Assembly (NCBI GenBank): GCA_951406725.2
Contig: OX597830.1
Coordinates: forward strand, 51,150,001-51,214,000
Direction of reading: 5' to 3'
From: Octopus vulgaris
Taxonomy: Eukaryota
DNA length: 64,000 bases
Of the stretch, positions 531-56,405 are shown piece after piece. The translations under genes were made by a program, and so were the position numbers. The notes under the pieces were generated by a model. It worked only from the letters and a program-made list of their open reading frames with translations. It was not told the origin of the DNA and did no database searches. Within the stretch, counting starts at the first letter, position 1. Each line of letters opens with the position of its first letter.

Positions 531-726
531 AACACATAAATGCAATAATAATGGGCTTTAGACATTCATTTATTTACTTATTTACTTAATAAAAATTTAG
601 CAATTAAGGACAACTTCTTAATAAGGAAAACTTAACAAGAAATTATCGGGTAGATAGCGTCGTTGATGTTGATCAGTTGGTTGCCCGGCTTTGACGATGT
701 AGGGTCGTTTATTTATGATACGTCCA

Positions 727-773
727 GACTTGCTGATGAATACATAGGTATGAAATCACAGGTGATACAAGTC
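727..773 (+). ncRNA. Type I hammerhead ribozyme, copy 1
   Basis: GACTTG-CTGATGA-ATAC(ATAG)GTAT-GAAA-TCAC(AG)GTGA-TA^CAAGTC. All three stems pair, the core is canonical, and the AUA cleavage site lies after 767. Confidence 0.88.
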
Positions 774-1185
774 CATATTTTAAATGTCTTACTTTGAAAA
801 ATTGCATTCGGTGGGATTAGTAAAATTTTTGGTAGAAATGACTAATTTTGTCCCTCTTAGCGTGTGGCATGTATGTATAATAATGCCCTCTATATATAAA
901 TTTAATATGTTCAATGAGAAAGAATTATTTTCGAAATTTTTTCTCTTATGAGGTTTTTCACGCTATCTACCCGATAATTTCTTGTTAAGTTTTCCTTATT
1001 AAGAAGTTGTCCTTAATTGCTAAATTTTTATTCCGAAAAAACTTTTCCTTTCCCGAAATGCAATTCGTAAAAGTCTGACATTTACCGGATGTAATATATG
1101 TAAACTAACCCATGTGCGTCGTTGATGTTGATCAGTTGGCTGCCCGGCTTTGACGATGTAGGGTCGTTTATTTATGATACGTCCA

Positions 1186-1232
1186 GACTTGCTGATGAAT
1201 ACAGAGGTATGAAATCATAGGTGATACAAGTC
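1186..1232 (+). ncRNA. Type I hammerhead ribozyme, copy 2
   Basis: GACTTG-CTGATGA-ATAC(AGAG)GTAT-GAAA-TCAT(AG)GTGA-TA^CAAGTC. Differs from copy 1 only by a loop change and a C-G to U-G wobble. Confidence 0.85.
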
Positions 1233-1478
1233 CATATTTTAAATGTCTTACTTTGAAAAATTGCATTCGGTGGGATTAGTAAAATGTTTGGTAGAAATGA
1301 CTAATTTTGTCCCTCTTAGCGTGTGGCATGTATGTATAATAATGCCCTCTATATATAAATTTAATATGTTCAATGAGAAAGAATTATTTTCGAAATTTTT
1401 TCTCTTATGAGGTTTTTCACGCTATCTACCCGATAATTTCTTGTTAAGTTTTCCTTATTAAGAAGTTGTCCTTAATTG

Positions 1479-1532
<54 letters not shown>

Positions 1533-43659: not shown

Positions 43660-45200
43660 CAGGGTAGTTATAGGCACCTGGGGGTATATGAAGGAGATGG
43701 GATTAACCACTGACTAATGAGAAAATGGATAAAGAAGGAGGGCTACTGAAGAGTAAGAACCATTCTGAAAACCTAATTGAATGCTAAACACAAAATTGAG
43801 GCCATAAACATGCTGGCCTTACCTGCAATCACATACAACTTCAATATTATAAACTTCTCCCCTCTATGTTTATCCCCCTTTTGGGCAATAAAGAAATAGA
43901 TATTATAAACTTTTCTCTCTCTATGAAATTAACAGGGTTGATGTATCAAAATACGAAAGCTCATGACAAAGCATTGTGTGCATCACCCAAAAACGGACAC
44001 TGGCCGAGTATACCTTCCGAGAAAAGAAAGCAGTCCGGGATTAATACAGTCTCAACTCTCAGTGAAAATTACAACATGGAACGTTTTGCCTACTTGCAAC
44101 AAGTAAACGATTGGATGATAAAACCAGTTCCGAAGCACGAAGATATCAATAAGTTGCAATCATTGACGGAAAACTAGAAAGTATACCTCTGAGAAATGCA
44201 ACTTAAAGAATCAGTACCCGAAGAAATTGTGTTCCCAGTAGACAAGGAGAAACACTTAAAAACATTAGCCAAAGAAACTAGCTTCCAATATATTTATTTC
44301 TTTACTACCCACAAGGGACTAAACATAGAGGGGACAAACAAGGACAGACAAAGGGATTAAGTCGATTATATCGACCCCAGTGCGTAACTGGTACTTTATT
44401 TATCGACCCCGAAAGGATTAAAGGCAAAGTCAACCTCGGCGGAATTTGAACTCGGAACGTAACGACAGACGAAAAACGGCTGCGCATTTCGTCCGGCGTG
44501 CTAACGTTTCTGCCAGCTCGCCGCCCTAGCTTCCAATATATTAAGGGTACATTCGAGCAACGGCCACTACATGACAAATACCCGAGTAGAATCAGGGACA
44601 TTGATTTAGATCAAGCTCTTACTTATCAGTTGCAGTGATGCTCTATTCTCAAACCAGAAACTGTGGGGTTAATCATTGCTGCTCAGGACCATTCCCTTAC
44701 AGATAGGAATTACCAGAATAACGTCCTGAAATTTGAAAGAAGCTTATCATGTTACATATGCGGAAAACACCCAAAGACACTCGACTGCATTTTCTCTCGA
44801 TACTGCAGACTGGCAGCAACGGAATATTTGCAAAGTCATGACAGGGCTGCTCAGTACAGACACAGGTTAATATGCCACACATACCACCTCACTCACAAAA
44901 ATAATTGGTGCAAACACAAGTCACTACAAGTTGCCCACAATGCTGATGTTACCATCCTTCGGAATTTCAATGTTCAGATCGATCGGGAAATACAGGCAAA
45001 CCGACCTGATCTCATAGTGAAAAATCACATCGTAAAGATTTGTTTTCTGATTAATGCTACAGCTCCAGCCGACAGAGACATACCTCTGAAAACATTTGAA
45101 AAACTGAGCAAATATAAGGACCTGAAGATTGAAATCAAAAGAATGTGACATGTCAAACCAACAACATTCTCTATTATTATTGAGGCACTTGAAATATTTT
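43660..45200 (+). pseudogene. R4/Dong-type LINE remnant (RT C-terminus, zinc knuckle, REL endonuclease)
   Basis: YRHLGVYEGDG, GLIIAAQD, CYICGKHPKTLDC, IQANRPDLIV, EKLSKYKDL. Interrupted by SINEs. Confidence 0.85.
44295..44525 (-). mobile_element. SINE family A, full length
   Basis: Perfect 17-bp TSD CTAGCTTCCAATATATT (44278-44294 / 44526-44542). Confidence 0.93.
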
Positions 45201-47199: not shown

Positions 47200-48035
<836 letters not shown>

Positions 48036-55263: not shown

Positions 55264-55310
<47 letters not shown>

Positions 55311-55318
<8 letters not shown>

Positions 55319-55800
55319 GGCATTATTACACATATTTTTTTAATTTGTTCCGAAGAAGCACGTTGTGACCGAAATGCAATTCGAAAAAGCCCGCCATTTA
55401 CATAGATGTATGAGGGGTGAACAGTTCCATATGCTACGATGGAGGCGACGGTTGCCTATCTGGTATGTTGATTTTGTTTATTCATGATATATCTTGAGTT
55501 CGCTTCATTGAAGAGCAAGGGACGCGGATACTGCGTTGATTGCGAAATCACAGGTGATCTGGAGCTAAATTCTGTTTTTAAATTACTCGCTTCGAGAATT
55601 GTATTCGGTACGATTTGTTTATATTTGGTAGTTATGACTTTAAAAGTCCCTCCTAGCGTGCGGCATTTATGTGTAATAATGCCCTCTATATAATATAAAT
55701 AAATATTTCCAAGTGAAAAAATTTACAGATTTTTTCTCTTATGAGGTTTTTCACGCTAACTACTTGATAATTTCTTATTAAGATTTTATCCTATTTTTTA
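55311..55800 (+). mobile_element. Diverged relative of the 588-1481 element: about one unit plus a short inverted 5' segment
   Basis: Shares CCGAAATGCAATTCG, GAAATCACAGGTGAT, TAATAATGCCCTCTATATA, TTTTCTCTTATGAGGTTTTTCACGCTA. 55311-55334 is inverted relative to about 55669-55692. (TA)n on both sides. Confidence 0.85.
55502..55565 (+). ncRNA. Type I hammerhead ribozyme with extended stem II (C3 changed to U)
   Basis: GCTTCA-TTGAAGA-GCAA..ACGCGG(ATA)CTGCGT..TTGC-GAAA-TCAC(AG)GTGA-TC^TGGAGC. Confidence 0.8.
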
Positions 55801-55930
55801 AATATATATATATATACGCGCATACACACACATACAAAATATAGGTCAGATCGATGTACCACACAGTGTGTTCGAACAAAGATTGATATTTTTCATAAAA
55901 GGAAAAGAATACACAATATCACTTCCAAAA

Positions 55931-56090
55931 GGAGCGGCTGTGTGGTAAGTAGCTTGCTTACCAACCACATGGTTCCGGATTCAGTCCCACTGCGTGTCAC
56001 CTTGGGCAAGTGGCTTCTGCTATGGCCTCGGGCCGACCAAAGCCCTGTGAGTGGATTTGGTAGATGGAAACTGAAAGAAGACCGTTGTAC

Positions 56091-56168
<78 letters not shown>

Positions 56169-56405
56169 GTGTGTGTGCGTGTATTTTTGTGTGTCTGTGT
56201 TTGTCCCCCCCAACATCGCTTGGCAACCGATGCTGGTATATTTAAGTCCCCGTAACTTAGCGGTTCGGCAAAGGAGACCGATAGAATAAGTACTAGGCTT
56301 ACAAAGAATAAGTCATGGGGTCGATTTTCTCGACTAAAGGTGGTGCTCCAGCATGGCCCCAGTCAAATGACTGAAACAAGTAAAAGAGTAAAAGAATAAA
56401 AGAGT
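55931..56405 (+). mobile_element. SINE family B (octopus OK-like, CORE-like domain), full length
   Basis: tRNA-like head GGAGCGGCTGTGTGGTAAG..GATTCAGTCCC, CACCTTGGGCAAGT, internal microsatellite, (TAAAAGAG)n tail. Confidence 0.92.

Follow-up and report, generated by a model that had tools for sequence, protein, structure and literature searches.

A 459-nt hammerhead repeat of the retrozyme kind in Octopus vulgaris, likely inserted by a Penelope-like enzyme

We read the element at 55310–55802 (copy B) as a non-LTR retrozyme: one unit, with slight decay, of a non-coding 459-nt repeat for which a type I hammerhead ribozyme is predicted. A Penelope-like endonuclease and reverse transcriptase likely inserted it into a (TA)n microsatellite, and the subfamilies likely diverged by insertion or deletion of a paired helix. 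We give this reading as a whole a probability of about 0.68. Positions are those of the window, the entire 64,000-nt stretch analysed here, which is AT-rich, microsatellite-rich, animal-type DNA.

Family membership and insertion layout

By BLASTN, copy B and copy A (588–1483) are the sole family members in the window, and both insertions are readable end to end. The match spans 55344–55786 in copy B and 1027–1452 in copy A, with 67.7% identity over 458 columns (E ~1e-48). Together with a MAFFT alignment in which 295 of 432 columns are identical, it bears out an earlier note that had placed copy B in the same family as 588–1481. The unit is non-coding, has 33–36% GC and measures 459 nt in both subfamilies (55344–55802; 1023–1481) despite many indels; the ribozyme of copy B is about 29 nt longer than that of copy A, which is offset elsewhere in the unit.

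Neither copy matches an Rfam hammerhead model at E values up to 10. Across the whole window, the 150 Rfam matches listed out of 311 come from microsatellites that resemble miRNA and snoRNA models; the best sub-threshold ones to miRNA models lie in 47404–47589, a long inverted repeat with a (CA)n/(TA)n/(TG)n centre and unique flanks that are complementary. Exact motif scans returned 0 loci in JGI metagenomes (two patterns) and 0 loci in GTDB genomes. A 16-nt helix III pattern hit 120 viral loci, which we rejected as candidates: they are without extended homology (longest BLAST piece 42 nt, pattern included), and an upstream core-like heptamer in 4 of the 120 was judged by eye to be chance. The element holds no frame of at least 110 aa and no reverse transcriptase plus GIY-YIG ORF of an autonomous Penelope-like element (PLE). 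Pfam gave no match for the five long ORFs scanned out of 70, and an autonomous PLE partner was not found among them. Elsewhere in the window, a 169-aa frame at 44639–45148, with no Pfam match, resembles by eye the C-terminal part of a non-LTR retrotransposon protein. Directly downstream of copy B, 55920–56400 holds what we take to be SINE-like repeats.

The two insertions read as follows:

55268–55315, no strand: (TA)n microsatellite, left flank of copy B; its final bases are also the first of the inverted arm
55310–55334, minus strand: inverted 5′ arm of copy B, 25 nt, exact reverse complement of 55668–55692
55333–55802, plus strand: direct arm of copy B, ~470 nt, one 459-nt unit plus ~10 nt of terminal overlap; 36% GC, non-coding
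55802–55817, no strand: (TA)n, right flank of copy B, read from the sequence
588–660, minus strand: inverted arm of copy A, 73 nt, exact reverse complement of 960–1032
657–1483, plus strand: direct arm of copy A, 1.8 units with a period of 459, short hammerheads at 727–773 and 1186–1232, followed by (TA)n

Copy B thus has the short inverted 5′ segment of its own that had been ascribed to it, sharing ~2 nt with the start of the direct arm, and it runs for roughly one unit, as had also been described. The repeated part of the copy A direct arm shows 4 differences in 366 nt. Both flanks of copy B are (TA)n, which bears on target-site duplication; the right flank of copy A is (TA)n and its left flank is not. 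About 60 nt of AT-rich sequence (528–587) lie between an upstream (TA)n and the inverted arm of copy A, and within them 545–572 is 75% like unit positions 877–904. PLE insertions are described, in the available text of PMC8557442, as partial tandems with an adjacent inverted 5′-truncated copy and a TA bias. Here, copy A is a partial tandem, both copies (2/2) have an adjacent inverted 5′-truncated copy, and the target is a microsatellite (both flanks of B, right flank of A). By this analogy, the layout of copies A and B is the usual one for a Penelope-type insertion. In vitro, the protein of an anole PLE cleaves both strands of AT-rich DNA, extends each of them, and initiates at internal RNA sites (PMC11167929).

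A different account, which we consider quite unlikely, is that helices I and II changed base for base by compensation and that the copies are different circular permutations arising from different entry points on a circular RNA. Its second half does not fit the direct arms. Copy B is collinear, in one piece, with the last full unit of copy A, and the ends of the two direct arms fall no more than a few bases apart on the unit when a 15-nt indel near the end is allowed for, so copy B is not the different permutation it had been taken for. Likewise, the supposed spacer at 1023–1115 is a part of the unit missing from the truncated first unit of copy A. The 3′ register is common to 2/2 copies, only two insertions being at hand, and the copies differ in 5′ reach (1.0 unit in B versus 1.8 in A) and in the inverted arm. 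The idea of different entry points is accordingly not supported for the direct arms but survives for the inverted arms, which start at different unit positions (1032 versus 55692). A direct arm of almost exactly one unit, with ~10 nt to spare, also fits a single turn of a circle.

The hammerhead and its divergence between copies

A relaxed scan for type I hammerheads on both strands gave three matches in the window (733, 1192 and 55508); the same scan on dinucleotide-shuffled windows gave none in 10/10. In copy B, the predicted parts are:

55496–55572, plus strand: extended type I hammerhead, predicted by motif scan
55496–55500/55568–55572, plus strand: helix Ib, GAGTT/AATTC, an outer helix absent from the earlier note
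55502–55507/55560–55565, plus strand: helix Ia, GCTTCA/TGGAGC, all pairs valid
55508–55514 and 55544–55547, plus strand: hammerhead core, from the motif scan
55508, plus strand: U at core position 3, where relatives read C
55515–55518/55540–55543, plus strand: helix IIa, GCAA/TTGC, all pairs valid
between helices IIa and IIb, plus strand: internal loop GG/GA, from the motif scan
55521–55527/55531–55537, plus strand: helix IIb, an extra 7-bp hairpin (55521–55537), pairs valid
55547–55558, plus strand: helix III, near-palindromic, 12 nt, identical to 755–766 in the first unit of copy A
55559–55560, plus strand: predicted cleavage site after C17, from the hammerhead consensus

Stems I and II of copy B are therefore present as first described, together with the extra hairpin, and three predicted helices surround the core with helix I open. 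The core block said to be unchanged, GAAATCACAGGTGAT, is indeed identical at 752 and 55544; the second unit of copy A differs from it at one letter. All type I core positions agree in copy B except position 3, a U opposite G8, and both units of copy A have a full type I core. Copy A carries two hammerheads in its 1.8 units, and copy B is itself a monomer. The predicted cut site lies 243 nt from the 3′ end of the copy B insertion and coincides with neither end.

Copy B has G10.1-C11.1, a U at 1.7 (U55566) and G55519:A55539 at the base of loop 2, where copy A has A-U, C and A:G. The letters of the loop 1–loop 2 contact, a 5′ U of loop 1 and R:A at the base of loop 2 (PMC2632901; also PMC11875169, available text), are thus present in B and absent in A. 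With these three features, the hammerhead of the copy B subfamily looks, from its sequence, like a more canonical form than that of copy A. At position 1.7 and at the last base of loop 2, copy A (774, 744–747) reads C and G where copy B (55566, 55538–55539) reads U and A; with n = 2, this may be chance or a tertiary contact that covaries.

The departure at position 3 is private to copy B. A search of sequencing runs listed 24 runs, 20 of them containing part of the stretch (10 studies, four organism labels, best word share 0.53); no RNA run was listed among these, which has no bearing on expression. Relatives were aligned at 80% likeness from four DNA runs, X1, X3, X5 and X6, with 944–2427 contigs per run. 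At 55508, C makes up 707/736 of depth in X1, 3584/3584 in X3, 265/265 in X5 and 153/153 in X6, or 96–100% in 4/4 runs; the subfamily thereby retains the type I core. The U that the earlier note saw at this position is real and, because relatives read C, specific to this copy. The usual partner of C3 is G8, with U3-A8 as the covariant found in nature (PMC3088659; PMC4209133, available text). In the anole ribozyme, C3G or G8C abolish activity (PMC11167929), and the available text of PMC7151607 mentions natural U3 with G8 only together with a 2-nt insertion in a halophile variant. By analogy, U3 likely impairs the ribozyme of copy B, and the suspicion already voiced to that effect gains support from the U opposite G8 and from C3 in the relatives. 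Eight of the 40 variant positions listed out of 124 differ from copy B in each of the four runs, the other letter making up at least 75% of depth, which puts the private change of copy B at about 2%.

The same contigs contain tandem units. Nine of the 12 joints listed (14 exist) return from unit end to unit start, the three others being left out, and give unit lengths of 459–463 nt (six joints), 473 nt (one) and 494 nt (two). Head-to-tail relatives therefore exist as DNA, and copy A has tandem units that each have a predicted type I hammerhead. Seven opposite-strand joints, at scattered places and with one contig each, may be inversion junctions or self-complementary matches and were left out of the evidence. 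Depth over helix III and 3′ of it exceeds that over helix II by a factor of 10 to 40, and we do not take these ratios as copy numbers.

How did the two ribozymes come to differ? The base-for-base account holds that stem I changed by compensation, but the copies differ there in length. Counted from conserved flanking anchors, copy B has 18 nt before core position 3 (12 in A) and 16 nt after H17 (10 in A), i.e. six extra nucleotides on each side of the core. Stem I of copy A (GACTTG/CAAGTC) agrees with the outer helix Ib of copy B at 8/10 letters (binomial P 0.002 at p = 0.3, for one hand-chosen register), as against 3/12 core-anchored letters for the inner helix Ia, far below the unit average. 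The stems I that had been compared are, on this showing, probably non-homologous, and the simplest reading of the difference is likely a paired gain or loss of a 6-bp helix, unpolarised in direction. Between the likely homologous helices, stem I of A and helix Ib of B, one pair changes on both sides. Helix II is more favourable to compensation, since three of its four pairs, read from the core, differ on both sides; its homology is uncertain because the stem-loop of copy B is 17 nt longer. Over the whole unit, double changes are not in excess (8 observed versus a shuffle mean of 7.7, with 32/60 shuffles reaching 8). The 'wholesale compensatory change' proposed for this hammerhead is not sustained by these comparisons.

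A conserved structure in the family is nonetheless supported, with selection on the structure of the unit being plausible. The two-sequence consensus fold scores −57.7 against a shuffle mean of −31.7 and is more stable than 60/60 column shuffles. Among the 40 listed variants (out of 124, unphased), pairing is preserved at 13 and broken at 10, the other 17 being at unpaired positions; 14.2 breaks are expected (P = 0.06), a weak bias against breaking. Position 55562 in helix Ia is often C or T in relatives, which breaks the pair unless its partner 55505 changes too. The earlier claim of selection on ribozyme structure is thus plausible, while compensation as the route for stem I is not supported, given the paired 6+6-nt difference. 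At the core, helix I has 6 bp and helix II 4 bp in either hammerhead version.

Folding, the 3′ domain and the route of insertion

The units are highly self-paired when folded (z −3.7 and −7.9). Three features stand out:

55369–55608, plus strand: predicted long-range helix, CCGAAATGCAATT at 55369 with 55596–55608, in the fold predictions of both copies
55654–55758, plus strand: most conserved domain, predicted multi-helix fold closed by TAGCGTG/CACGCTA
55741–55758, plus strand: ATGAGGTTTTTCACGCTA motif with an 8-codon frame, its 3′ part being one strand of the closing helix

The long-range helix (1053–1270 in copy A) is predicted to enclose the hammerhead and a long hairpin that differs in sequence between the copies. 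For helix III, a self-dimer of −11.2 kcal/mol is predicted and no monomer hairpin. Helix Ia has a probability of 0.00–0.01 in the copy B unit and of 0.24–0.28 at best with family letters. Enforcing helix III raises it from 0.01 to 0.68 in the whole unit; with the same constraint, the truncated context 55344–55580 still gives 0.02. The monomer of copy B is predicted to adopt the hammerhead only when helix III is enforced. This modelling makes dimer-assisted cleavage through helix III the likely mode of cutting, as described for metazoan type I motifs in the available text of PMC4209133 and PMC7229834. With the eight near-fixed family letters, the folding energy drops by 0.9 kcal/mol on average, compared with −0.06 for other letters at those sites and +0.9 kcal/mol for random changes, n being small.

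A monomer fold that does not favour the hammerhead could also mean that the ribozyme is a non-functional relic in a dispersed repeat amplified at the DNA level. Copy B has U3, eight of nine tested Xenopus retrozyme dimers were without cleavage (bioRxiv 10.64898/2026.07.22.740005, available text), and anole hammerhead mutants still inserted in vitro (PMC11167929). Against this, relatives keep C3, and the core and helix III are intact while the ribozyme periphery is the most diverged part of the unit (bins of 30–42% identity). The inverted, truncated arms in TA tracts, moreover, match described retro-insertions. We regard the relic as very improbable and a retro-inserted retrozyme as the better account.

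The domain at 55654–55758 comprises the two most conserved bins of the unit (0.90 and 0.88 identity), contains a predicted GGCAT/ATGCC hairpin and has z-scores of −3.6 in copy B and −3.4 in copy A. CACGCTA pairs with the upstream TAGCGTG with probabilities of 0.64–0.99 in B and 0.88–1.0 in A. We infer that the domain is a candidate protein-recognition element. As reported earlier, both members keep ATGAGGTTTTTCACGCTA followed shortly by stops: the occurrences at 948 and 1407 run for 9 codons before a stop, and the one at 55741 for 8. Because its 3′ part pairs in the closing helix, the conservation of this ATG motif is partly explained. It may be a vestigial PLE ORF start, an origin that is possible because the anole enzyme begins reverse transcription 111–118 nt into its ORF, where a protein-binding region has been proposed in the first 172 nt (PMC11167929).

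Were the motif a real or decayed ORF start bound by the enzyme, the unit would be the pseudo-LTR (pLTR) of an autonomous PLE and both copies its 5′-truncated ends. The 3′ ends of A and B fall ~60–75 nt past the ATG, the anole enzyme likewise starts inside the ORF (PMC11167929), and retrozyme families resemble pLTRs in Xenopus (bioRxiv 10.64898/2026.07.22.740005, available text). We nevertheless think this unlikely, given that the frame stops after 8–9 codons in 3/3 occurrences, that base pairing accounts for part of the conservation, and that the hammerhead sits ~180 nt upstream of the ATG, whereas in the anole element it overlaps the start codon. Past the unit end, furthermore, copy A and the DNA contigs go back to the unit start and not into an ORF.

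For the non-LTR retrozyme that we favour, the following route would account for both copies. Tandem copies would be transcribed, and their hammerheads would cut mainly as dimers via the palindromic helix III, yielding monomers that could circularise. A borrowed PLE enzyme would bind the conserved 3′ fold and begin reverse transcription ~45–60 nt downstream. Its template, uncut tandem RNA or a circle, would be read through the ribozyme up to a variable stopping point. A second, inverted arm would then be added from the other DNA end, giving a two-ended insertion in (TA)n. A circular or tandem template, as suggested before, is needed to explain a direct arm that runs across the predicted cut site and the 1.8 units of copy A; an uncut tandem RNA and a ligated circle are not separable from this pair. 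For the anole element in vitro, uncut RNA is the main substrate (PMC11167929). Divergence of the subfamilies would have affected the periphery of the ribozyme, where the 6-bp helix would have been gained or lost on both strands together and helix II remodelled, with the 6-bp/4-bp geometry at the core kept throughout, and U3 would have arisen in copy B along with about seven other private changes.

More speculatively, these strands could be joined into one proposal, which we put forward as possible though doubtful. The hammerhead would evolve by whole-helix swaps (the paired 6+6-nt indel, from extended to short, with the unit constant at 459 nt); the invariant palindromic helix III would be a shared dimerisation handle through which diverged subfamilies could trans-activate cleavage; and the conserved 3′ fold, not the ribozyme, would be the address for the Penelope enzyme.

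Comparison with known elements

A link between retrozymes and PLEs is in print (PMC7229834; bioRxiv 10.64898/2026.07.22.740005; available text of both). Families of hammerheads within one genome that show compensatory changes had already been described in 2014, along with a model based on a circular template (PMC4209133, available text). Our literature search found no cephalopod retrozymes described, though the supplements of the cited papers, which lie outside that search, may hold such families; neither 'hammerhead' nor 'ribozyme' occurs in PMC13282606. Penelope-type mobilisation of retrozymes has been proposed in print, and a biochemical demonstration was not found in the literature consulted.

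Like EN+ Penelope-like insertions and their non-autonomous derivatives (Craig et al. 2021, PMC8557442, available text; Frangieh et al. 2024, PMC11167929), copies A and B combine a partial tandem with an inverted 5′-truncated copy, a microsatellite target and, in 2/2 copies, common 3′ ends consistent with internal initiation. Unlike EN+ PLEs, they are without a reverse transcriptase or endonuclease ORF, and their hammerhead is not at an ATG. The PLE hammerhead variants in the available text of Cervera and de la Pena (2014, PMC4209133) are mostly minimal, with a short helix I and a long helix II, unlike copy B; their natural U3 variant is U3-A8, whereas copy B has U3 with G8.

The closest likeness is to metazoan non-LTR retrozymes (mussel, 350–390 bp, coral and axolotl, in the available text of Cervera and de la Pena 2020, PMC7229834; also Li, Clavereau and Pollet 2026, bioRxiv 10.64898/2026.07.22.740005, available text), and by its sequence the family, which shares their testable features, is a known kind of element. 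Both have a short non-coding unit of less than 50% GC with one type I hammerhead per unit, a self-paired fold, and monomers as well as tandems. Dimer-assisted cleavage, predicted here, is likely common to both, and the two hammerhead versions in one genome recall Amex1 and Amex2 of axolotl. The 459-nt unit is slightly above the 150–450 bp given for metazoan retrozymes in PMC7229834. It differs from them in that helix III is a 12-nt near-palindrome and that helices I and II of copy B are extended. Inverted arms and TA targeting are explicit here. Copies A and B thus add a further retrozyme family in an invertebrate genome, and the pair, which places an extended hammerhead and a short one on a common scaffold with an identical helix III, is a convenient natural system for testing dimer and cross-subfamily cleavage and the 3′ fold as a possible cis signal for Penelope-type enzymes.
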